A stretch of DNA of 64,000 nucleotides from assembly GCA_039545335.1 (NCBI GenBank), contig BCIN01000006.1, forward strand, positions 1,178,001 through 1,242,000, given 5' to 3'. The notes under the pieces are model-generated. The model did not search any database, had not been told where the DNA came from, and worked only from the letters and a program-made list of their open reading frames with translations. Positions 1-40,932 of the stretch are shown here, in pieces (within the stretch, counting starts at the first letter, position 1; every line of letters starts with the position of its first letter). The position numbers and the translations under genes were made by a program. This DNA comes from Kondoa subrosea (Eukaryota).

Positions 1-562
1 AGCCTGGCTATATCTACGCACTAGAAATGGCTCCTATTCATCCAACGAAATATCAAACCAAAACATTATTGAAAATAGGAAGATCCGTCAGACCTGTGGC
101 AAGGCATAATCAGTGGAAACGGCAATGTCCTTCTAGAACACCTCTAGTCCGCGATTTCTATCCTTTACATCCTTCTCACCCTTTATTGCATCGTCCAAAT
201 TCACCTTACTCAATTTCTTCCCATCATCAACCTCAGAACCAATATCAAGGATCGAGACTAAGAGGAGCTTTTATGGTCAATGAACATGGCTGTCCATACC
301 ATCATCGATTAGAAAGGTTGATTTTGATCGAATGTGCCGGACGAGCTGCTATGGAATCTGCTGGCTATGAGAGAACGGCTTGCGCAGATTGCGGGAAAGT
401 GCATGTTGAGCTGTTTGAAGTCAATGTGTGAGTGTACGATTCGTTCTTGATCTTTGTTGATATACTGACATAAGTCGTTATTGTAGCGGAGCATATGAAG
501 CATGGGTCTCGGAAATGATTCTCAGGTGGATCATGTTTTGTGAGAAAGTATTGGCAGCATGA
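1..562 (+). CDS. T5orf172/MUG113-type (GIY-YIG superfamily) protein, 3' part; 5' end outside window
   Basis: Reads PGYIYALEM...LLKIGRSVRPVARHNQWKRQC...HRLERLILIE...CADCGKVHVELFEV; intron 428-486 (gtgagt..tag) restores WVSEMILRWIMFCEKVLAA*. Confidence 0.8.
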
Positions 563-591: not shown

Positions 592-1536
592 TTACAATAT
601 CGCTCGAAGTACAGTGATATCCGCTACTTCATAGTCGCCGATCAACAGATGCTTCAAAGTTACTTCTGTCAAAGTTCCATGACTATCTTCCCAGAGCGAA
701 TACACTCGAACGTTGTTGAAGGAAGATACGACTGAAGAGACCACAGCAAAGTGAGGGCTTGGAAACCGAGGCTTAGTTTTGCTATAATACTCCAGTGCGA
801 CTATATCCCCTTCTTGCACGATCTTCCGCAGCGCTCGAGGAATACGCGTCTTGTCTCCCTCTTTTCTAACAATCGGAATCCGCTCGAAAGTCGAAACGTC
901 GTTACAGACGCTTCTTAGTAGCTTCATTGTATCCAGTGGACCCGGTGTATTTGTAGCAAGGCAGTATCGTCCAGCCAAGTGAGCTCTCCGATAGTCGTTC
1001 TCGAGCACTACCAGTAGTGCTTGCAGAACGGCGCCGAAACAGTTAATTTCCGCTCGAGGAGACAAAGCCAAAGCAAGGTCAAGCGAGCCACCAGTCCGTA
1101 CGAGCTTGTTGCAATAATATCTGAGATCTGGAGAATTGTGCCGCCAGGCCCAATGGAAGCAATGTAGCTGTTGTCTGAGTAGAAGCGCCAAAGGATGTTC
1201 CTTTGTTGTGTCTTTGAAAGGAGAATCTTGAAATATAGCTTTCGCCGCCAGAGACAGCCTTGCCGCGATTGGCAGAGGTTTCAGGTCCTGAGAGTCTAGA
1301 CTTGAAGGTAATAGCACATCGTGCTGGCCAGCTTTCACAGCCTGCTTGTCCTTCAAAACGAGACTGTCTCTGCTTTCGTAGGCTGGAGGCTGATCTTGAC
1401 TGGTCCAGGAGTTGGCTCGTACGATAGAAGTAATCACTCCAGAGTCTTCAAGAAAGATCTCCTTATAAGCGAGGCTGTTCTTTTCAAATTTCTTGAAAGA
1501 CATTTGTTCGCTTCCAGCGCGAACTTCGGAACTCAT
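592..1536 (-). CDS. Intronless 314-aa hypothetical protein, possible NlpC/P60 papain-like C-terminal fold
   Basis: Long uninterrupted ORF with pyrimidine-rich leader; motif order INCFGAV...EGDIVAL...HFAVV...VYSLW. Confidence 0.55.
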   Translation of the reverse strand: MSSEVRAGSEQMSFKKFEKNSLAYKEIFLEDSGVITSIVRANSWTSQDQPPAYESRDSLVLKDKQAVKAGQHDVLLPSSLDSQDLKPLPIAARLSLAAKAIFQDSPFKDTTKEHPLALLLRQQLHCFHWAWRHNSPDLRYYCNKLVRTGGSLDLALALSPRAEINCFGAVLQALLVVLENDYRRAHLAGRYCLATNTPGPLDTMKLLRSVCNDVSTFERIPIVRKEGDKTRIPRALRKIVQEGDIVALEYYSKTKPRFPSPHFAVVSSVVSSFNNVRVYSLWEDSHGTLTEVTLKHLLIGDYEVADITVLRAIL

Positions 1537-1695
1537 AGCTTTAGAAATGAGGGAATTGAGAAAGAGAAAAAGAGAAGAAGGGAACAGATATAGTAGGAAA
1601 AATTGGGAGAGAAAAAACAGCTAGCTGAAAAGCGATGAAAGGGCTAGATCGAAGATGACTTCTGATGGCTAACAACATCAATAATACTTCAATAG

Positions 1696-21903: not shown

Positions 21904-23119
21904 TTACTGGTGATGCAACACCTTTACACCTTCCTCCATGAGAAATGCCTTGACATTGGCCGGAAGCTCAAATTCAGCCATAGACATCGACACGTTCTTC
22001 CAGAAAGGATGATCTAGTAGCTGTTCAACTGTCGAGCTGAAGCATGCCATGACCGCGCTGTAGAAGCATGGATCGAGGTGCGTTTGAGTCGTCTTTAAAT
22101 TCGCGATATGGTTTCTGCTTGGGAATGCATGCATGGAGCCTTGACCGGTCTGTATACTTTAATCAATGCGAGCAACATACAGATGGATGAGACTCACCTG
22201 CATCAACCACAATAAGCTTGCCAGTCTGTTCATATCCTTTGCTTTCGATTCGATACTTGCTTCCTCTGCTGTACCGAAATCACAAATCCGAAGCGAGAAA
22301 TCTGGCATTATCAGGACATTGCCACTCTTCTGTCGTATGCTCAGCGCAGATTCAGCTGAGGAATTGCTAAGACATCGTGACTAACGAGATCACCATGCGC
22401 CAGACAAACTTCATTGTGCAAGTACTTCAAGCCAAGCAGTATTTGCCAGGAGAAGTACTTGACGAGAGGCAAAAGTATAGAGCTGGCAAGGCTTCAGCGC
22501 AATACGCAACGTCAGCGCGAAGAACTCGCCATTCGACAGCTGAGGCTACACTTTGGCGCAATTCTTGTTGTTCAGCCGGATCACTTGTAGCGATTTCGAT
22601 CCATCCAAGACCGGTCTCTGGCAGCTTGTCTGCCCAAACTTGCAGAAATAGCTGAAGGCTAGTGCATCCTTTCTCCAGTATAGCCATATCGTATAGATTA
22701 GGATGATCGGCAGTGTAAGATTTGATGATATAAGGGCTGTTCAGCTGGGCGAGCAGTCGTCTTTCCTTTTTTATAGCGCTCAAGCAGGAGTCCCTGGTCA
22801 GAGACATGTTCTTGTCTCTCCTAAAAGTGCAAGGCATCAGCTGTGGTCAGCTTTGGGAAACAATAACACACCAAATCTGGTAATCATGAAGCGCAACCTT
22901 GGCTGCAAATATCTGACCCTGATCATTCTGAATGGTATACAAGGTGGATGCACCACCCCCTCTAGACAACACGTCCGATAAGTGATAGCCGCTGTGTGAT
23001 TCATCAGCTTGTGCGTCTGTCCAGAAGGCGACGTACGCAAGATAGCAAGGCAGGCTATCGATAATTCGATCAGTGCGCAAGAAGTGCCTTTGAGGTATTA
23101 AGTGTGCTGATGAAGTCAT
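21904..23119 (-). CDS. Divergent non-RD protein kinase
   Basis: Spliced: LSRGGGASTLY, FAAKV, KKERRLL, KYFSWQILLGLKYLH, HGDLKSGNVLI, ICDFG, EQLLDHPFW; requires one GC-AG intron (gcgagt..ccag). Confidence 0.8.
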
Positions 23120-23715
23120 ACAGTGAAGTGAGAAGAGAAGACAAAGTCACAAAGAATCGAAAAGTGCGTTACGCAACACTAGAGCACTGACTAAGAGCAG
23201 TGTACTTGATGTACCGACTTTATGCAAATGCGGTACAGCACTGCAGAGAACGATCAATAAACCATATCGATGGATAGTACACAGCTTTGTGTTGCGAAAG
23301 AGTCAGCTCAAAGATTTCAGACGATATACTGTATCGGATCGAGAAGAATCGCCGCGTTGAGAAAAGATATCGCCGTGTGTGACTAGGTGTCAGTAGGTTG
23401 ATTGGACACTGATGGCATCGCATCGCATTGCATGCATTACATCTCTAATGATCTTTGAGGCAGAAAAGGTATGCTAGTAATAGCCTAGTATTATGTACAA
23501 CTGTAGAAAGCCATGACGAACAACGAGAGTAATAAATCAGACGGCTGAAGTGATGGTCTGTCCCTTAAGAGAGTGCCATTCGAAGTAGAAGGAGACAATA
23601 AAGCCAAGACCCATAGCGATGACAGGACTGTGCAAACAAAATAAGCAATGTCAAATACCGAATTGAATACACTCACATGATAAAGGCTTTTTTGAGATCT
23701 AGTCGGAATCTGGGA

Positions 23716-25937
23716 CTATAAATCCCTGTAGTGGTAGTTCGGCTTTGGATTACAATGCGGATGCACGCTGAAGAAGCTCACAGATAAGTCATCTTCTACC
23801 TCCTCTTCATCATCATCATCTTCTGATCTAACCTCCAAACCGTCGCGTCCTCTTCTTATTCTTTCACGGTTCTAGAGTAAGGGGTAAGTGTCAATTCAGA
23901 TGGCTCATGAGAGCAAATACCGAGGTATGAACAGCAGTAGGTGGCAGCATTTCATCCGAGGTTGAGGGAGGCGTTTGATCCAGTCGGCGCAACTATAATC
24001 GGGAGTGAGCCAACATGAAGTTTATGTTTTCCTGACACACACCTTTTTCTTGCCGGGCAGTTTCTTACCGCGACCGACTTCCTTAACGACCTCTACTTCC
24101 GAATCATCGCTCACAAGAGTTGTCTTGCGCTTTGTGGAAGCTCTGCGACCTTGAATCGTATTTGCCGTGCGGCCTGCAAAATTCGTCGCTTTCGCCCTTG
24201 AAAAGTCTCTCTCGAACGAGAGAGGGAGAGCTGACCTGTTCGCTCTACCTGCTTACCAACACCGACAATCTCAACGTCACTGGAATCAGCGACCGTGTGA
24301 ACCTCCTTCTTCGGTTGCACATTCGACTTGCTCTTTCCCTTCAATGAAGCTTTCTTTGAAGCTGCCTTTGGTTGCACTCTGCTCAAGATATGTCCAGTGG
24401 AAGATGAAGATTCTTGCGCTTGTCTGCCATCAGTGTTCTTGCCGAAGAAAGCTGTAATCTGTTTTGTACTATTTGCAATTGCTGATTTTGCTTTGATCTT
24501 GACCTTGCCGATGGCTGAAGTGGAGACAGCAGATTTGCCGTTATCGGCGACTGATATCAAACGGTCAGACTACTTGATCATGCAGGAAGGACCATCGAAA
24601 CAAACCCGGTTTCTCGGGATATTGGTCAGCGACATCTTCCACTAGTGAATGTGAGATGCTGAGCAGATCTTCATGATTGAAAGACATAAAACATACGTGA
24701 GTTTTGGTCAGTATCTTCATCTGCTGAGTCCTCTTCCTTCGCGATCTTCATCAATTCTTTGATGGCAGGTTTCTTCAACGCAAATTTCAAGCTTTCCTTC
24801 TCAACAGTGACCTGTTTGCCTCCGATTTCGAGGTGTAAAGATGAATCTCGGGCAAAGAGGTGCACTTTGCCTTTCGTGCAGGAATTGTATGAGCCTCCAG
24901 GTGGATGAACTCGAAGCGCAATAGATCGGCCCAGCATTTGAGTCTTGTCGTCCCAAATTTGAGTTCCGTTCTCGTCGAATTGAGCAATGTGGAAAGAAAG
25001 AGTGACCCTATCGTTCCCCGGCACCTTTAATGTATGATCGGCCTTCATCCTGTTCCATACAGCACCATCTATGACGCAGTCGAGGAAACTATGATAGCTT
25101 GCCGGCGAAGAACCTCGCAAAGTTGTAATTTGGCCAACACTTTGAAAGGCTATTGAAATAACCGTTAGAGCTTGTATCTGAACAGACTTGATTACTTTAC
25201 TTACAAGCCGGAATCGTCCCATTTTGCTTCAGAAGTTCCACCCACCTAGCAACGGTTCCGTCGTTACTTGGCATTCCTTTGGTTCCACTGCGGGTGCGTA
25301 TGCTCAGTTCTTGCGAGAACTGCATCTTTGCGAATACAGCCGGAAGACCTTGAGGGTAGGCCTCTACTAGATCTTTGTGGGCGATGGAATAACACCGGAA
25401 GCCATAAAAATCATCTTCCCCAGGAATGATTGCCTTTCGGTGGTGGCTAGATCACACGCTTAGATGAATTATGTTGGCCATAGACTCACTCACAATCGTA
25501 AGATAGCAGAATTACCAGTCCGCATCAGGTCGTCCTCTTCTAGCATGAAAACTTTTGTCATGTTCTTCGATTCATGTCAGCCAACGCCGCACCGGGTAAC
25601 TGTATTTACGACATACGTTGTCGTCTGAAGCGTACATCCGGATAGCCACCATCCCTTCCTCTCCGTACTTCGAAATTCGTCCAGTAACCAAGAATGATCC
25701 ACTAGGATCGAGTTGACTCGCTTCGGTCGGTAGCTGGTACAAGGCTTTGCTTCTAATCAGATAACATCATAGGGCGCAAACAGTTGACTGACTTTTATCT
25801 CGAGTTGTGCGCGTTTTCTTGATCCTTTCAACGGTTCCATCGCGAGCGCTTTTCCACCACCCATCAACCAGATTGCTGATTTCTGAGCCCGTGAAAGCAG
25901 CTCCTGGAGCATTCAATTCCACTCCACTTTCCTGCAT
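23716..25937 (-). CDS. Orphan multi-exon protein: globular N-half, K/E/D-rich C-half
   Basis: ATG at 25937 (MQESGVEL), open exons bounded by GT-AG sites including ORFs 24671-25222 and 24111-24560; no recognised family; 3' end approximate. Confidence 0.55.
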
Positions 25938-26190: not shown

Positions 26191-26505
26191 ATGTCGTCTA
26201 CGTCTTCAGAGCTTGCACCTTCGAGCGTCACTGCTGCTGCTACTTCTGGTGCAGACGACGCATGTTACATCACCATGCCTGTAGCTGAATGGCAGGCTGT
26301 GATGGACGATTTGAGGGCTCTGCAGACACTCTTTCGTAACCTACAGATTCAATTAGATGCTGCTGCGCCCGATGCTGCACTTGCTGGTCAGGGTTTGTTT
26401 GTTTATCTAAGTCTGCTGTCATTACTTCTCAGTCCTCTTTCTCTCTGGATAGGAGGTAACGGCAGCAATGGAGATGCTGAGGATGGAGTTACTAGCAGAG
26501 AATGA
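26191..26505 (+). CDS. Small orphan protein with a short coiled-coil-like segment
   Basis: MSSTSSEL...EWQAVMDDLRALQTLFRNLQIQLD; probable phase-1 intron gtttgt..tag; divergent from the gene starting at 25937. Confidence 0.45.
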   Translation: MSSTSSELAPSSVTAAATSGADDACYITMPVAEWQAVMDDLRALQTLFRNLQIQLDAAAPDAALAGQGLFVYLSLLSLLLSPLSLWIGGNGSNGDAEDGVTSRE

Positions 26506-27043: not shown

Positions 27044-29072
27044 ATGAAAATCTCCTATCAACCCCTCTTGCGAGCTATTGACCGGGCTCTGGGTAGCGCT
27101 ATCGCTGCTCGCCGCGCTTCTACACGTAAGGTCTGCGCAGCACAGGATTCCACCATCGTCTAATACTACGCAGACGCTACTCCCATCGCAGCAATTCCAG
27201 GCGCGCTGTCAGACAAAGATGATACAGATGCCCATTCAAAAAAAAGAGACAAAGGCAAAGGGAAAGCCAGGAGCTCAGAAGATGAGGGCGAAACCGACAA
27301 TGGTGTGTGCAGCTGAGCAATGTAATCTAGGCATCTACTCAGTGCAGTATTGCAGTATTCACTTTCGCAGAAGAAGATCTTATGGATGGTTTCTTCGCGC
27401 TTGAAGTAGATGAAACGGAAGACATGGCTACAGCTTCAAGACCAGCGACCGAAGCTCAATTAGCTGTACAGGAAGCCATCAGCAGAATCGACGCCATGGC
27501 TGATCGTTGGCAGGCTTTCAACGCTCTCTCAACCGACCAGGTGCTTTCCCAACTAGTAAAAGATGGCGTTGTTCCTTTGCCTGAACGGCTCATCCCACCA
27601 ACCATGTCTGCAGCCAATGTCCAAGCTTTCACTTTCTTCCTCAACCTCTACCAAAACCTTATTTGTGAGACCTTCGAAGGCCCTTCCAATCTTACTGCTA
27701 TTCTCTTGAACTGTATTGAAGATGACAAATGGGTGGAAGCTAGAAGAGTCTACGATCTCTTACACCAAGATCCCTTCACTGTCTTCGAAAATGAAATTCA
27801 AAGTGTTGTCAAATTTCTTCCTATCAACACCAAAGGGGCTATTTACGCTAGAGGTGCAACAAAATGGGCCTCGATAGAGGAACACATCCTGTTCGCTGAA
27901 GAACAGTCCAAAATTTCACCTTCTACCGCGGCTTTCTTTGCACCTTATCTAGTCTATTGGAAGAAACTGCGAAAGGATTATGGAAAGAACGCTTATCTAC
28001 CCGTGCGCTATGCGGGTTTTACCATCAACAAAGCTCAAGATCGCAAGAATGGAGATATTGGAATGGGGTTTACTGCGCACAAGAAGGGGAAACGTGCCAA
28101 ATCGGCTTTCCAATCTTTTATCGCTTTCATGTTCAAGCAAAATCCTGACATGACGGTACAAGAGGTCAAAGATGACTGGTCCTGCGCCGTACTGAACAAG
28201 CGGTTGCCCAATGACATCGACGCTGCTTTGCAAGAGGGCTTCTGGATTACTTTTCTCAAGTCCTTCCTGAACAAGAAGCTCATTGAGGCTGTATTGCCTC
28301 GTAAATTTCCTGCTTGGGTAACCGATCGGTTTGTAGGGTTGCCAAACGTGTTAGACCAGGTCAAGATCTCCCTCTTAGGAAGTTGATGTGTTCTAACTTG
28401 TTCAACAGGTTTTGGTAGTGGGTGCTGAACCTTCATCTCTCGCTACCGGTCAAATGGTCCTTGAAGGAAGATTAAACAGAGCCGTGCAGCCATTTGGTCA
28501 GCTTTACTGCAGTCTGCAGTCTACCGATCAGTCGACTGATGTAACTTGCAGGTTTAACTGCGTGGGCACCCTTCAAGATTGTCGATGTCAACCCTGATGG
28601 CTGGTCCAATGATTGGATCGTGAGAAGAGGCAGACCTTTGCCAGCGGCGTCTCGCATGTCAGAAAAGGCTCGCTCTGCGGTCCTCAAAGCAATCATCCCT
28701 GTAGCCGCACTTTACGTTCTGGGTTTTGCAGCATTGGCTGAACTGTACATTTTGCTTCAAGCCGCTGGTTGTCAGACACTGCGACCGTTCGAAGATCTGA
28801 ACTGGGGAGATACTCAAAGGGTCAAGGTTCAATCTTCTTGGGGAATGGGATCAGAGCGGATTTTAGTTCTTACGGTTGTTCCAAACCCGGGTACAATGCA
28901 AAAGAGATCAGACATCGCTGCAGGCGAATGGGCTTATCTGCTCTCTCTGGGTGTGAGTTTAGAGCGCTATCATCCTTGCCTCGCTTACTGATTAGTTTAA
29001 TAGTATATGTGGATGAGAATGGAAATGGACGTGACACAAGCTGATGCAGACGCACAAATGGATCAAACCTAA
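27044..29072 (+). CDS. Hypothetical protein; putative GIY-YIG-like nuclease domain fused to a MUG/UDG-like domain
   Basis: Exons splice in frame from ATG 27044 to TAA 29072; motifs GAIY..RYAGFT..R..QEGFWI..FLN, then VLVVGAEP..VDVNP..YVLGFAA..VVPNPG. The gene is well supported; the domain call is inference. Confidence 0.6.
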
Positions 29073-31878: not shown

Positions 31879-33013
31879 TCACTCGTAGACATCGTTTCGC
31901 TTAAAGTCTTCTACTGTTCGTAGTGTCATCCTTCGTTTCTTAGACCGTTCTTCTCCCTCGTTGTTTGCTTCCATCTTTCTTTTCGATAATCGTTGACCAG
32001 CCAACAACTTCTGCTGAATCACTTTGTCATCTTCAGCTTCGAACATAGGTTTGAGCCAATGTTCTGCGCATCCACAAGGGCTCGCTTCAGTAAAATATTC
32101 AGGGCCATATTCGATTAAAAGCTGATCATGAGCCTGAATGGGTTTGCCAAGACTGAAAAGGGAAAGGCTGCCATCCGTTTCTCTCTTCAACTTGACATTC
32201 GCTCTCTCGCAGGAAGAGTTGAGAAGCCGCAGAGGCCCGGTAATGACATAGACTGAAAGCAAGTAAGCATTTTTCATGGCGTCGAGCAAAGCTTCGCTTA
32301 CCTTTTTTATTGATACGGATGGTAGAAAAGGCATATCCATGCTTTATCATCAGACCTTCTTCCTGCCTATTCAGTTCAACTAGAGAGCTGAATCGGCTGA
32401 TGATTTTGCTATTCTTGTGAATATCGACTTGCGCCTTCACCTGGCATTGAGGGTTTCCGTTATGCAGGTGAGCTACGTCGTCTACAGTATATGTCTGCTG
32501 TGAGACATGATCTAATGCGCGATCGCCATAGATCCATTTACGCCAATCTCGAGAATACCTACCAACGAAAGTAAGCTCAAATTTCGAGGTGAGAGCGACG
32601 ACTCACTTTGACACCCATTTAGCTACTTCAACTTCGTCTTGGCCTATCTTAAAAGTCCCTCCCTTCGCATCTTTTGTCCAGAGACATTTCTCACTCATGG
32701 CTTCTGACATGATGATGAAATATTGCTCTAAAGCTGTAGTAGATGCTATTCGAGCAGCATATTGTCGTGCAATCTTCGGCTCCAAGAGCTTTGCATCACA
32801 TTGAGGTCGTGTTTCGAAGAGCCGAGTGGTTTCCGAAGTGTCTTGCTTCTTCGTGTTGTGGAAGACTTGGAAGAAATTAGATTCTACAGCCAATCCAGTC
32901 CATTTTTTCCGGGTCAAGCTCGCACAGAAGCTCTTCTGCTTTTTTGGCATTCTGGTAAGCAAATTTTGGCAAATTTGAGAAAAAGGTTTGCTTTCACATT
33001 CAGGTGCGTACAT
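31879..33013 (-). CDS. Divergent SET-domain protein, Set9/KMT5-like
   Basis: Three exons splice to LVELNRQEEGLMIKHGYAFSTIRINKKVYVITGPLRLLNSSCERANV...IQAHDQLLIEYGPEYF...PCGCAEH. Confidence 0.75.
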
Positions 33014-34103
33014 GGTTTCAAATGACCCAGAACTAAACTCTTACGGTATTCTGACACAGTGGGAGCACACTATATCTGGTCCGAGCGACAACAGAATGCA
33101 CGAAAATTCAGTCTTCTCTCCTTGCTCCTCTACTCTCTCTCGTCAACGATCTTGAAGACTAGAACTGGTCAGAGCTCTGCTGTATGCCATGATGAGCATC
33201 ACACAATATGCTTTAGCCTACGGTATCTGTTGTCCTAGCTAGATTACCTTCAATCAGTCATGGCAATTCCTTCAATTCTCTGAATTGAAGGATTTGGGAA
33301 AGAAACGCGTAGCCCTTTTGGGACCACCTGATGAAATCGTTTTGCTATTCTCTTTGTTGGAAGGCTTATTCAATGGCTAGCTCTCCTGTTACAAAAATCA
33401 ACTTAGCTGAATCTCTGTTCTTTCAGGTTTGATAAAGCCATTTGATGCCACACCTGCCTTTCTGGCAATCTTCACTCCCTTCTGCGATCTTGTGTCAACA
33501 AAGAAGGACCAGCAAGCATTTAAATCAGTTCTTCACGCGCTTTACAGATCGCTCAAAGACTGTTCTCTTTGTCGCTCGAATCCATTTGCTGTTTTGGATA
33601 AGGCTGCTTAAGCGATGGAACCCCGAGATCTTAACAAACTCCTTCACAAAGACCATCAAATGCCCTTCGCCAATGAACGATATCTGTCGTGCAGGAACAG
33701 CTAGCTTGTTACTCAGTTCACCTACTTCAATTTTTCCTTCGCTATTACCAGATTGCTTAAGACCAACTTTTGGGTGTGCTGCAAAGCTAATATTGGATGA
33801 AGTTCAAGACATAGACCTAGTCAGGCCGCTCGACTTCCACTATATGAATTACTGAGTAGTCATTTACGCAGTTTGCCAATCTGAAGGTAGCTGAGGTAGA
33901 GAAGCGGCTATGAAGAGGCGTCTGTTGAATGCCAACCTCTCAGTGACGGATCGAAAGACAGCCTGTCTCTGTAGTCTAGCTCTTATTGGGTCGTGCTATG
34001 TGGCTCATGCACATGTACCTCTGAGTATCTGTCAACAGCATGGGATGTGTCGTCGTAAGAGACAACCATAATACAAGCTCAACTACAAGCTGGTATCTAA
34101 TGG

Positions 34104-36096
34104 TCAGAGCACTTCCTGTGCTTGAATGTGCACCTCTTCACGAGAATTCAACTGAATTTCATACAGCCGGAGCGAATGATCTATTGCACAATCGGTCAAT
34201 CTTGCGCTCACTGAGAAGTCCTGACTTACAAAGCAATTCATCATAGCGGATCAGATCTGCTGCTTCATTGTCCGTTCGAACCCTTGCTGTCCTCTCTTTT
34301 GCTTTGACTTGAACAGCGTTGATAGGTACGAAATCCATAGCGACCTTCAAGCAGTCGGTGTGATTTGTGACCTAAGATTGGTGATAATCCGTTTGGTAAA
34401 GAATCGAAAGTGCGTGAACACTGACCTGATGAAGACTGCCACTGCTCGACACTTGAGCTCCCGATCTGGACGTCGAATTGAGTGACTTACGTAGGAATAT
34501 AGATCATGTCGCCTTTCTTCTGCTCTGCATATATTGGATGTACATCCCTGAGTGCTAAAGCGTCGATTATTTCTTGATTCACTTCGATCTGAAATGAGTA
34601 GGGCGAGAGCTCAGGCCGCAGTCGACAGCAGACTTCTTCCACTGCGTGCTGATGTTCGGGTGCGAACAAGATCCACTTCGCGAGCTCGCCAGCTACCTGC
34701 ACTGAATCAGCTGTTAGAAGCCAGTTTTTTTTGGAAGGGGCAAACTAGTAGATTCTGTCGAGGATCCCAATGAGGATGTGAGATTGCCACATAGATGCAA
34801 ACGAGCTTACCACAGCAGGTGCAGGATCCGCATGGAGAGGCGTAGATGTAGGTTTCTCCGTAGCTGTTGCCGTGTTGCCAGCGTTAGCCTGATATATTTT
34901 CGGTCCAATGTCTGGTACAAGTCCCTCCAGCGGGAGATAAGCTATCCCAGGCGAGTAATAGTAGTTGGAGAAAACATACAGAAGTAGGGAATGCAGAAAC
35001 GAGATTGTGCGATCCATTTCGTACTATCCATTTTGCAAACTTGTATTCCGATAGTGCTGTATACTGCCTAGGCAGAGCTTCCGCAAAATGAGCTGTAGTT
35101 GGCCAGTCCTAAACTCGGATAAGCTGACTCTACCATGGGCGATAGGCAGAAATCCGAACCTTCAGTCTGGCAAAAGCGATATCTCTTGATTTGCGCGATG
35201 ATCCGAAGGAACCCATATACTCAGCAAGCTCCATACTTTTAACTGCATGATTGGTTGTGTAGATTTGGACCATCTTCTCGTGAGCTCGCATGTCCTCAAT
35301 CAGATTCGCTAGTTTCCAACAATCTGCATTCAAAGGACATGCGGATAGAACGAAAGGAACGTCTTGCTCTATCAGGGATTGAAAAGCGTCTTCTGTACAC
35401 TCTGCATAAGAGATGGTGGTAATTAGGCCTAAACGTTTCGAAGAGATTGAAGACTTCGAGGTGAGAAGGAGTGGCAGAAAGGCTATATAGCTAGGAATCC
35501 GACTGAGAAGAGAAGAGAGCACTTTGGTGTTGATGCGACTTATCGGTAGATAGAAATGTGTACCGTTGAAGGAGTTGCAAAGCGGTGATGTTTGACTGAG
35601 TGCGGGATGACAATCGAGACATACCAGACTATGAGAAGAGTATGAGTATGAGTAATCACAGCATTCGCATTAGTACCCGAACATACTCGTTACATTTGTT
35701 ACATCTGAAGAAGCACAGAGTCGAGCTTGAACAGCGGTCGCAAGAAAAGATGGTAGATTGTAGCGATGTATAATTCCGAGCATTCGGTAGTGATGAGTGT
35801 AGCAGCCAAGCATCCAGCATCGGCCGAGCAGCCCTAGCAAGAATAGCGAGATGTGCTTTAAGTTCTGCAGTTGACATGCTGCCAGTAAACGTGTTGCGAT
35901 ATAGGACAGCACTCTGAGCAGATGATTTATTACTATACTTCGCTTGCTGTCCTGCTGTCAATTCTCCCAAGGGCACCTGCTTCTGCAGGCCTGAATGCTT
36001 CCTTCCTCCTCTCTTGTTCTTCACAGTCACAGTCTTCTCTGACTTCTTTTCAGTGTCAGCGATAGCCTGCTTGCGTTTGCTGGACTTGCTGGTCAT
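34104..36096 (-). CDS. JmjC protein of KDM3/JHDM2 type with N-terminal Cys-rich zinc finger
   Basis: CDRC..CNKC..CLDC finger; DWP..F; PDIGPKIY; TPLHADP; QKKGDMIYIPTGSLHQVTNHTDCLKVAMDFV across intact splice sites; last exon uncertain by ~25 nt. Confidence 0.85.
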
Positions 36097-36345
36097 GTGA
36101 ATGAGCTGCTAGGGTATCGTTTGAAAAAAACAACAATGCGTTATGAAATGCAAGACAATAATCTCATTTGCTCAAGTACTGTCTATCCGGAAGGGGATCG
36201 AGTGCCCGACTGTTGTTATTGTTTTTGTTCTTGCCTTTCCTTCTGCTTTTACTTCAATACTATTGTATCGCTGCTCTTTCCCAATTCTCTCGCTCTTTCT
36301 CAATTCTCTCATGTACCTTCTGCTCTGATGTTACATGGCCCGGAC

Positions 36346-36469
36346 GCTCTTCATTGCTGGACTTCGGTCCTCTGCAGCCTTGAGTTTGTCGGATCGTAAC
36401 TGCCACAATGTTTCGAAATGCTCTTCATTGCTGGACTAGTTCCTTTGCAGCTTTGAGTTTGTCGAATCG
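36346..36469. repeat. ~50-bp imperfect direct repeat upstream of the JmjC gene
   Basis: gctcttcattgctggact..cct.tgcagc.ttgagtttgtcg.atcg at 36346-36396 and 36420-36469. Confidence 0.9.
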
Positions 36470-37299
36470 CGGCAGAGCAAGGGGAATGATAGAGATGACA
36501 GAGGCGAGAGAATAAGGATCGTTCATTGCAAAGTAAGTATCACCAGTCGTAGCAGAGAGCTACCTTAATTGATTCTTTTATCGTTAGATCCAAGCGATGA
36601 AGTCTGATTGTTTTGTCTTCTCTGTATCCACCCGTGCTCTTCTGTTATAATCTATCGGTCGATATTCTGTTTGAAAAGGAAGCTGTCATTCTTTCCTCAT
36701 ACTCGAAGAGATTGTGGGACATACCGACCTGTTTGCTCGCGGCTGATGCTCTGCTGGAAAGACCAATCGATTCCCTCCCATGCTTCAACTCCGACAGCTC
36801 TGGCGCAAGTTATTCAACAGATTCATTCGCCGATTGGCAACCTGCGAAGCGTTTTGTCAGACTTGCTGCTGCCGATCAACTCTGTCAAAAGGTCCAGCAC
36901 TCACGCGCATGATACCATTGAATCTCGAACTGATCATCACCGTATCGGCGTGACGTTGCATCAATCTACTGATCACAGGCTGGTGCTTGATTCTGCAATG
37001 GATTGAAGGAGAAAGAACTTCGACTATTGGTGCTCTAGAACCACGAGAAGTACTACAATCTGGTACGAGGTTCGTCGTAGGCCCGCTAAGAGCATCATAG
37101 CCAGTGTCGCAGGTCAGGTACAGGTTCAGAGCGGCAGATTGGGCTATAGATTTTGAATGAAGTAGCCTGATGTTGCTTCGGTGATCTCAAGATTCATGCA
37201 GAGGTGGGCATGAGGAGCACCAGATGACAGCCGTTGATCAGCGGCTGTGCTGAGGAAAATCTTGCAGCTTGAAGCCAATCAGCGGGTTGTCAAGACACG

Positions 37300-37912
37300 A
37301 TGATCACAAGCCTGTTATATCGACCAGCTCTATCTTGCCAAAGATGCAGCAGCTTCCGATATCTGACTACTGGAGTACCAGAGGCATTGGTAGGCTCACG
37401 AGAAAGGATAGCTCAAAAACGGCAGCAGTATGAACAGAAGTATGGGCAGGCGCTTGAGGCTGCAGCTAAGGCGTAAGCGACTCGATCTTTGTCTTCAGTT
37501 CTTGTTCATCTGGATGCCAGAAAAGGAGTAGACTTGCAAACGTTGAAGGACAAGGCTCGTCGAGCTGAAAGATTGAAACCAATCAAGCCATTCACTCAGC
37601 TCTCAAGCTATCAAGCAATTCATCTACGCAACAGATACCTTCTGCTGTTGTAGCTCCTTCATTACCGAGCGGGATAGATCAAGCGAGGAGCAAAAGCGGC
37701 ATCAAGGTCAGCAATCCTCTCTTCAGTTTCAGCCGAGCTCAAGGTATGTATAGCCTCTTTCGGACATCATAGACCTACAGAAGCTTCTCACAAGGCATCC
37801 TGCACCTCCAGCTGAGGAGATCTCTGCCCTTTGGAAAGCTTACCATGCGTCAGCCAAATCAACAACGAAACTAGGCGCCGTCATCCCAGTCGAAACCTAC
37901 AGACGAATGACT
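37300..37912 (+). pseudogene. ATP11: ATP11 (F1-ATPase assembly chaperone) 5' fragment, disrupted
   Basis: Presequence-like start, KYGQALEAAAKAKGVDLQTLKDK, GIKPLSDIIDLQKL..EISALWKAYHA..GAVIPVETYRRM; exon 2 frameshifted (TAG at 37651); truncated at a splice donor. Confidence 0.75.
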
Positions 37913-37941: not shown

Positions 37942-38440
37942 TCGAGAATGCGGCACACGCGAGATAACACCAGAAGCCAGTCAGTAAGCCAGCCAAGAGT
38001 ATGCTGCGTCAGCTTCAAGGAGCGCAGCATCATGCAATCTTGCGAAAGAAAACACTGCAAGTGATCATATTGTAATCCAAGGTACTTTCGAAACCTTGTG
38101 CATGGTCCCGGGTGAGCGTATGGATCCCAAACTGATCCACAGCACGAGAAGGTGGTTTCGAGCGGTCGAACACGTATAAAAATATAAAAGCGGTCCGACA
38201 TAACTCATGAGACGAAGCGCATCCCTGACCAGCGAAGAACGACTGGTATAAGGAAGATGATTATGTCCTGGCGAAAGTTGCAATCTGTTTGCCAGATGAA
38301 GTAAGGTTCATTTCATTGTCGCGCATCCGGCTCAATGTATGGAGAAACGGCCTTAACACAGCAGCCAGCAAATGGAATTACTGCTCCACTTTCCGCCTTT
38401 CAATGATTGATGATCGCTCTCATACTAGAAGAATGGACTC
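37942..38440 (+). pseudogene. MOT1: Decayed composite copy of the MOT1 upstream region and an internal MOT1 segment
   Basis: 37942-38195 aligns by eye to 40599-40865 (shared atgctgcgtcagcttcaag, agcacgagaaggtgg); 38205-38440 aligns to 42845-43097 (shared tgtttgccagatgaagtaaggttcat, agcaaatggaattactgct, atactagaagaatgg). Confidence 0.92.
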
Positions 38441-40466: not shown

Positions 40467-40932
40467 GTTCACAACCACGGACGCTCTTGGTATCAATCAG
40501 GATAAAGAAGAAGAAGGGAGAGGGAGTGCAAAAAGCAAACATTGCGTGAACGGAAGATGGATTCTCATTTCGCGCGTCAGTCCTCGGCGACTCTTAGCTC
40601 GAGAATGCGGTGTATGAGGGATGAGAGAAATACAGTAATCAGTGACCAGCCGAGAATGCTGCGTCAGCTTCAAGCAAAGCAGTACATGGTACCAAGGAGG
40701 AGGCATCATGCTGAGTCTTCGCAACAACAAACACAAGTAATATAATCTCAATCCAAGGCAATTGGACGCTTTCGAGAGCTTGCGATGGTTTCGAGTGAGC
40801 GTACAGATCACAAGCACAAGCACGAGAAGGTGGCTTCGAGTGGTCGAACACTATAAAAGCAGCTCGTTCTGAACCATGTAGGGAAATGTAAGGGCCACTT
40901 TCGTGTAGCCTGAATTTATACCATAGCCTTGT

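Follow-up and report, generated by a model that had tools for sequence, protein, structure and literature searches.

In a 64,000-nucleotide stretch of the Kondoa subrosea genome (contig BCIN01000006.1, positions 1,178,001 to 1,242,000; hereafter the window, with positions counted from its first nucleotide), we analyzed a six-exon gene on the forward strand (27044..29072) whose predicted 585-residue product appears to join a GIY-YIG nuclease domain to a domain resembling the uracil-DNA glycosylase (UDG) superfamily. We favor, at a probability of roughly 0.4, the interpretation that this protein is a host-domesticated, fast-evolving sensor-nuclease. In the working model, the C-terminal UDG-like domain would bind DNA at an odd base, a mismatch, or an abasic site without efficient base hydrolysis, this step being the more tentative part of the scheme. 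The bound domain would then position the non-specific GIY-YIG nuclease to cut beside the odd base, and the nuclease, using one metal ion on E359, would nick nearby DNA that is subsequently repaired or destroyed. Such a mechanism parallels plant MSH1 and the bacterial wH-GIY-YIG enzymes, which combine a sensor with the same nuclease. Of the two halves, the nuclease alone is reasonably secure, whereas the UDG-like partner is plausible and putative.

The gene was delineated from its open spliced frame, its GT-AG introns, and codon scores. Its exons (27044-27125, 27174-27302, 27371-28359, 28409-28496, 28552-28952, and 29004-29072, all on the plus strand) join into an uninterrupted frame of 585 codons. 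The introns measure 48, 68, 49, 55, and 51 nt, and all five have GT..AG ends, the splice signals of intron 2 being the weakest. When codon usage was scored against a training set of eight housekeeping frames from the window, the proposed frame ranked top among the six possible frames in every one of the six exons. The gene's GC content at third codon positions (GC3, 0.46) lies within the host gene range of 0.36-0.53, the observed/expected CpG ratio in the window is 0.86, and the window's genes are fungal-type, in an intron-rich host genome of 18.9 Mb. The 585-residue, six-exon gene is thus intact and real, with its splicing predicted from the DNA. All nine motifs quoted in the first-pass annotation were located in the spliced protein, in the order given: GAIY at residue 226, VRYAG at 282, QDRK at 293, QEGFW at 358, and FLN at 369 (with an additional FLN at 160) in the nuclease half, followed by VLVVGAEP at 401, KIVDVNP at 438, IIPVAAL at 477, and VVPNPG at 538.

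The probable GIY-YIG nuclease domain spans residues 226-371 (27835..28272, plus strand), as judged by profile placement, pairwise alignment, and pattern testing. Its catalytic candidates are Y229 (or Y266 or Y274), Y284-A-G286, R295, E359, and N371, with the linker strand near W340. As references we took relatives of I-TevI from phages, where 67 of 71 retrieved loci matched and 51 distinct domains were retained, and aligned the resulting whole profile to the full 585 residues under three gap settings, with long insertions permitted. The profile scored z values of 4.5, 3.4, and 2.5 relative to shuffled sequences, and these scores were equalled by 0, 0, and 6 of 300 shuffles and by 0, 0, and 1 of 66 unrelated real negatives, respectively; a first run had given z = 4.0, with none of 300 shuffles and 2 of 197 overlapping negatives scoring as well. 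Without guidance, the profile placed its YxG, Arg, and Glu columns on Y284-A-G286, R295, and E359 in the three alignments shown. Pairwise comparison set residues 340-371 against residues 56-87 of T4 I-TevI, aligning E359 to E75 at a pairwise E of 0.002, while hhalign matched residues 340-369 (E = 0.037), and the mean alignment score against the 51 references was beaten by just 2 of 300 shuffles. Blastp, hmmsearch, hhalign, MAFFT, and the profile all place E359 opposite the invariant Glu. The protein therefore presents a linker strand and a Glu helix carrying the candidate metal-binding Glu (E359), together with a second motif of Y-x-G followed by an Arg helix (Y284-A-G286 and R295), although the MAFFT register differs there; these second-motif and Arg-helix features, and the functions assigned to Tyr, Arg, and Glu, follow PMC3045582. 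Finally, a pattern encoding the GIY-YIG order matches the protein, 46 of the 51 references, 4 of 5000 shuffles, and none of 116 unrelated pseudo-proteins; like the UDG pattern discussed below, it was composed with the protein in view.

Several results weigh against this assignment. The best single pairwise score was reached by 39 of 300 shuffles, hmmsearch with --max returned -0.5 bits (as good in 50 of 1000 shuffles), and a block-chain test was not significant, with 31 and 62 of 300 shuffles doing equally well. The first motif is uncertain: 55 residues separate GIY from YIG, as opposed to 9-12 in the reference rows shown, so that Y229 requires a 54-residue insertion, and the choice of the first Tyr depends on gap cost, falling on Y229 (in GAIY) when gaps are cheap and on Y274 when they are dearer. 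Core insertions have been described in GIY-YIG restriction enzymes (PMC1564403). MAFFT moves the YxG column to G-M-G at residues 301-303 and the Asn to N395, so that the C-terminal Asn typical of the UvrC/HEase lineage is either N371 (profile and pattern) or N395 (MAFFT). On the supporting side, ESM features of residues 206-400 provide a lead only: a cluster at 0.86 carries PF01541 on 12% of its members, and the closer neighbors are unnamed fungal clusters at 0.90-0.91.

These negative HMMER and block tests, together with blank family libraries (no match for the protein in Pfam, PHROGs, NCBIfam, or PADLOC) and patterns composed after the protein had been seen, are what would be expected if both likenesses were accidental and the protein were a lineage-specific orphan of unrelated fold. 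We regard that explanation as distinctly improbable, since profile, pairwise, and pattern tests converge on the same catalytic residues and a GIY-YIG cluster appears among the ESM neighbors. The N-terminal half is very probably a GIY-YIG nuclease domain, and the sequence supports a domain of the I-TevI/UvrC type holding the Tyr, Arg, Glu, and Asn needed for one-metal DNA cleavage. Because this catalytic set is present, the predicted protein probably nicks DNA.

AlphaFold models of single exons, built without an alignment, reached predicted local distance difference test (pLDDT) values of 39 (for the GIY-YIG check) and 44 (exon 5). Fold searches with these models returned middling, unrelated rows, with no GIY-YIG or UDG entry among the PDB matches listed, and the single GIY-YIG protein that did appear, from a virus and ranked 17th (E = 0.1, rmsd 18.7), has no evidential value; given the low pLDDT, the searches are uninformative and say nothing for or against either fold. 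Accordingly, the nuclease half of the first-pass annotation stands at the level of sequence (profile, pairwise alignment, and pattern) and draws nothing from structure, the models being useless.

The second domain, at residues 401-563 (28409..28952, plus strand), is an alpha/beta domain recognized by pattern testing and profile placement, in which UDG-superfamily-like motifs occur in order: G405-A-E407-P408, D441, L486-G487, and N541-P-G. Of 78 reference loci given (70 from proteobacterial genomes and 8 of 80 Mug loci), 71 were kept. A first pattern missed the protein and fitted just 11 of the 71 references. A second pattern set matches residues 402-542 and 35-38 of the references, and was satisfied by 13, 14, and 35 of 5000 shuffles and by 0, 0, and 1 of 116 unrelated negatives. 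Both motif orders put forward in the first-pass annotation therefore exceed chance, the GIY-YIG order clearly and the UDG order modestly. In whole-protein runs with UDG profiles, the best placement began at residue 393 in 7 of 12 cases, with scores mostly within chance, and a mixed-family profile brought the LG strand and motifs 1, 3, and 2 into register. N541-P-G also corresponds to the family 2 form of motif 2 (N-P-S without His) and aligns with the PNP of Mug, at an E value (0.32) that is not significant alone. Motif 1, however, reads G-A-E-P rather than the G-I-N-P with catalytic Asn that characterizes the MUG/TDG enzymes of family 2.

Other profile-based tests count against a UDG assignment. 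UDG profiles found no match on the C-terminal half with hmmsearch or hhalign, the block-chain test was matched by 126 and 207 of 300 shuffles, and three profiles gave whole-protein z values of -0.6 to 1.1. The Mug profile reached z values of 3.3 and 2.1, but its alignments start at residues 200-245 and sprawl across both domains. With the C-terminal half alone, UDG z values were at most 2.2, compared with 1.8-2.4 for the wrong-family GIY control. Two narrower kinships were rejected: the LESPG/WNVVP subfamily of UDGs (7 members) does not fit (z < 0.3), and similarity to the genome's own TDG is at chance level (22 of 300 shuffles).

The failure of UDG profiles to outperform the wrong-family control leaves room for a genuine GIY-YIG domain joined to something else, either another alpha/beta domain (TIR-like or unnamed) or a membrane anchor at residues 473-491. 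This very hydrophobic stretch (28680..28736, plus strand) has a 19-residue hydropathy of 2.18, exceeding all 71 UDG references (maximum 2.03), and could form either a buried helix-strand of a UDG-like fold or a membrane helix. The top ten named ESM clusters for exon 5 all belong to the TIR clan, at 0.76-0.78 and below the lead threshold, which also speaks against a UDG fold, and the best match in a PDB sequence search is a TIR-SAVED protein (E = 1). When TIR was examined directly, a TIR_2 profile built from 29 of 30 fetched bacterial domains gave no hmmsearch match and no hhalign match on the C-terminal half, and its z values (-0.5 to -2.2) fell below those of its own shuffles, and a TIR domain was accordingly rejected; moreover, the UDG motif order arises in just 13-14 of 5000 shuffles. 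A non-UDG partner thus appears somewhat unlikely, and we consider it reasonably probable that the C-terminal domain has a uracil-DNA-glycosylase fold. For the glycosylase fold proposed in the first-pass annotation, the motifs are collinear but the profiles are not significant; its "MUG/TDG-like" label is not shown, and the residues oppose a normal glycosylase pocket.

The predicted pocket bears on whether the domain is an enzyme or a sensor. Glu is the third residue in none of the 66 reference motif-1 matches; families 1 and 2 carry a water-activating Asp or Asn there, and a Thermus UDGa with Glu at this position was stated to be inactive, as "data not shown" (PMC5387724). Residues 409-428, which follow motif 1, contain no F, Y, or W, whereas Phe is present in the rows for family 4 and Mug, so that under an inferred column mapping the stacking aromatic is absent; in Brig1 and an archaeal UDG this aromatic stacks on the flipped base (PMC11078745). 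In motif 3, D441 stands where most references have Asn. The combination of a GAEP motif 1 with no stacking aromatic makes a base sensor likelier than an active glycosylase, and the UDG-like domain would have an altered specificity and probably binds a base rather than excising it. Because D441 puts an acidic residue where the base is read, the target may be a cytosine-like base and not uracil.

The same residues can be read as an active site. In that case both halves would be enzymes, the UDG-like domain excising a damaged or modified base by means of a water molecule activated by E407 or D441 and the GIY-YIG domain then cutting the abasic site, to give base-excision or restriction in one protein. 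E407 lies where family 1 enzymes have their Asp and those of family 2 their Asn (PMC5387724), N541-P matches motif 2 of Mug, and Brig1 is an active UDG-fold enzyme whose essential Glu reads the base (PMC11078745); archaeal EndoIII-GIY-YIG fusions are a proposed precedent (PMC1564403). Set against this are the missing aromatic, the Glu found in none of the 66 references, and the presence of separate UNG-like and TDG-like genes, both on contig C1 and named from motifs and Pfam. We therefore consider two active halves unlikely.

The favored sensor-nuclease would be fast-evolving, and searches for relatives returned nothing significant, a lack of homologs that counts against our interpretation. 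In a 5.8-billion sequence set, the exon 3 frame gave 2438 candidates with none at E <= 0.01; longer forms gave 432 candidates for exon 3 and 545 for exon 5 (lengths of 73-233 aa left out), none at E <= 10. A phmmer search of exon 3 against 1.84 billion representatives found none at 0.001, the metagenome and viral contigs searched held no homolog, phages and plasmids gave matches just at E values of at least 2, and the best PDB sequence E values were 0.3 and 1. Queries of the host genome with exon 3, with exon 5, and with the DNA each returned one match, the gene itself; no paralog was found, by a search that also overlooked a T5orf172 gene detected by Pfam at window positions 3-428, so that distant copies could escape it.

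Ahead of the nuclease domain, residues 1-27 (27044..27124, plus strand) form a basic amphipathic helix that is a candidate mitochondrial presequence on the basis of composition and hydrophobic moment. This segment contains five K/R residues and one D and has the highest hydrophobic moment of the protein; when composition and moment were compared, 26 out of 817 Met-started 27-mers from the background had similar properties, but none of 8 other N-termini did. The resemblance to a mitochondrial presequence is weak, and a lysine-rich patch at residues 50-60, within the acidic and lysine-rich linker that follows (residues 46-90), could equally well be a nuclear signal. Residues ~90-225 (27427..27834, plus strand) have no assigned fold, with no match in Pfam, PHROG, NCBIfam, or PADLOC. 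If import occurs, the protein might be a nuclear-encoded, mitochondria-targeted base-sensing nuclease on a repurposed uracil-glycosylase fold, representing an undescribed basidiomycete family. Such a nuclease might cut mitochondrial or foreign DNA at a modified or damaged base, as a fungal counterpart of MSH1 or of bacterial modification-dependent restriction. We regard this reading as a whole as improbable.

The genomic surroundings do not suggest mobile cargo. Downstream of the gene lie a Cdc27-like gene (ANAPC3, E = 5.7e-9) and then a CMS1-like gene (E = 0.00096), and beyond these a very divergent SET-like gene (31879-33040, minus strand, E = 0.024) and a very divergent JmjC-like gene (34487-36108, minus strand, E = 0.058), both below Pfam cut-offs. 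These two weak matches, at 2.8 and 5.4 kb, along with several nearby unannotated genes and the precedent of TET/JBP genes that ride fungal DNA transposons (PMC12730594), could indicate a mobile anti-silencing cassette acting on methylated or oxidized cytosine in chromatin. However, the Cdc27-like and CMS1-like genes intervene, the region 21850-29320 matches the genome once (itself), no long inverted or direct repeats bracket the gene, and both the GC3 of 0.46, which is host-like, and the CpG ratio speak against such an origin. DNA methylase and TET/JBP had no matches in the genome, in a search known to be insensitive. A cassette of this kind is thus highly improbable, and the anti-silencing role beside SET and JmjC genes proposed in the first-pass annotation finds no support, given sub-threshold matches, intervening housekeeping genes, and unique DNA without element ends.

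The unannotated frames comprise one that is kinase-like by eye with no Pfam match (21904-23146, minus strand) and three with a coding-like codon score or notable length (24111-25766, minus strand; 26194-26505, plus strand; 595-1620, minus strand); the first three of these four lie upstream of the gene. A CxxC..CxxC stretch occurs close to the start of the JmjC-like gene. Beside that start, a 1.6-kb segment (35990-37598) is 90% identical to G000:C1:3512-5120, and its last 340 bases match seven more places at or near contig ends, a subtelomere-type repeat inside a chromosome. Short direct repeats at 37997-38173 and 40652-40851 (70-94% alike, ~2.68 kb apart) suggest a small decayed duplication.

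Other GIY-YIG and UDG-fold genes were also noted. The genome's two Slx1-like genes, named from motifs and Pfam, are its two PF01541 matches and sit on contig C8. The gene analyzed here is not one of them, so it is not Slx1; it has four scattered Cys with no Cys cluster and was detected in one copy. The Slx1-like genes (G000:C8:1016411, L003, and 979391, L004) are near-identical, 37 kb apart in opposite orientation, and each adjoins a related unannotated gene. The end of an ordinary T5orf172/MUG113 gene (GIY-YIG clan) occupies positions 3-431 of the window, 27 kb from the gene. Elsewhere, a bacterial locus, L235 (G022:C3:869100-869528, minus strand, 429-aa frame), joins a glycosylase fold to a nuclease, with an N-terminal UDG fold and a C-terminal HNH-like motif read by eye.

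Both the organelles of plants and the restriction systems of bacteria have enzymes that combine a sensor with GIY-YIG; the literature searched listed no such enzyme in fungi and no case in which the sensor has a UDG fold. Searches pairing GIY-YIG with UDG, glycosylase, fusion, or fungi, at the level of listings and abstract openings, found no protein joining GIY-YIG to a UDG fold, and bioRxiv 10.1101/2025.10.29.685425 contains no occurrence of GIY-YIG or "fused". A genuine fusion would represent a one-protein cutter at a specific odd base and would point to an unrecognized DNA modification or lesion in fungi; if imported into mitochondria, it would be a candidate for a role in how fungi repair or inherit their mitochondrial DNA.

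Read from a candidate first Tyr through YxG, Arg, the linker strand, and the Glu helix to a candidate Asn, the nuclease half follows the same order as GIY-YIG homing endonucleases of the T4 I-TevI type and the UvrC/HEase lineage, with its C-terminal Asn (PMC1564403). It differs from the I-TevI type in being an internal domain with long insertions, encoded by a nuclear spliced gene, whose partner is not a NUMOD/HTH array and which lacks an intron-homing context. The EndoIII glycosylases belong to the HhH superfamily. Their fusions to GIY-YIG in Methanococcales (COG1833) are the nearest printed architecture, a glycosylase and GIY-YIG in one protein, although they are archaeal, carry EndoIII at the N-terminus, and draw on a different glycosylase superfamily (PMC1564403). 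With the UDG superfamily (E. coli Mug/TDG of family 2, family 4, and Brig1, PMC11078745) the domain described here appears to share the order of its motifs (motif 1, then motif 3 and the LG strand, then motif 2), family-like spacing, and a Mug-like NP. It differs in having GAEP where those families have GINP, GEAP, or GQDP, in lacking a stacking aromatic, in its motif-3 Asp, and in its fusion to a nuclease, and its profile scores are not significant. Plant EFFECTOR OF TRANSCRIPTION is likewise a lineage-specific eukaryotic GIY-YIG protein linked to repair and methylation, but it has zinc-binding ET repeats (PMC6585611), and the Cys residues of our protein form no such repeat. In its proposed mode of action the protein would resemble two kinds of sensor-nuclease. 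The bacterial-type wH-GIY-YIG enzymes Ahi29725I and Apa233I join a modified-base reader to GIY-YIG, although they are prokaryotic and use a winged-helix 6mA reader (PMC11037411), and the gene is not a member of that group. Plant MSH1 unites a lesion or mismatch sensor with GIY-YIG in one chain (bioRxiv 10.64898/2026.06.11.731605); its sensor is a MutS module with an ATPase and its nuclease is C-terminal, whereas the Kondoa protein, which is not an MSH1 member, places the nuclease first, ahead of a putative UDG-like sensor, and may share with MSH1 a targeting to organelles.
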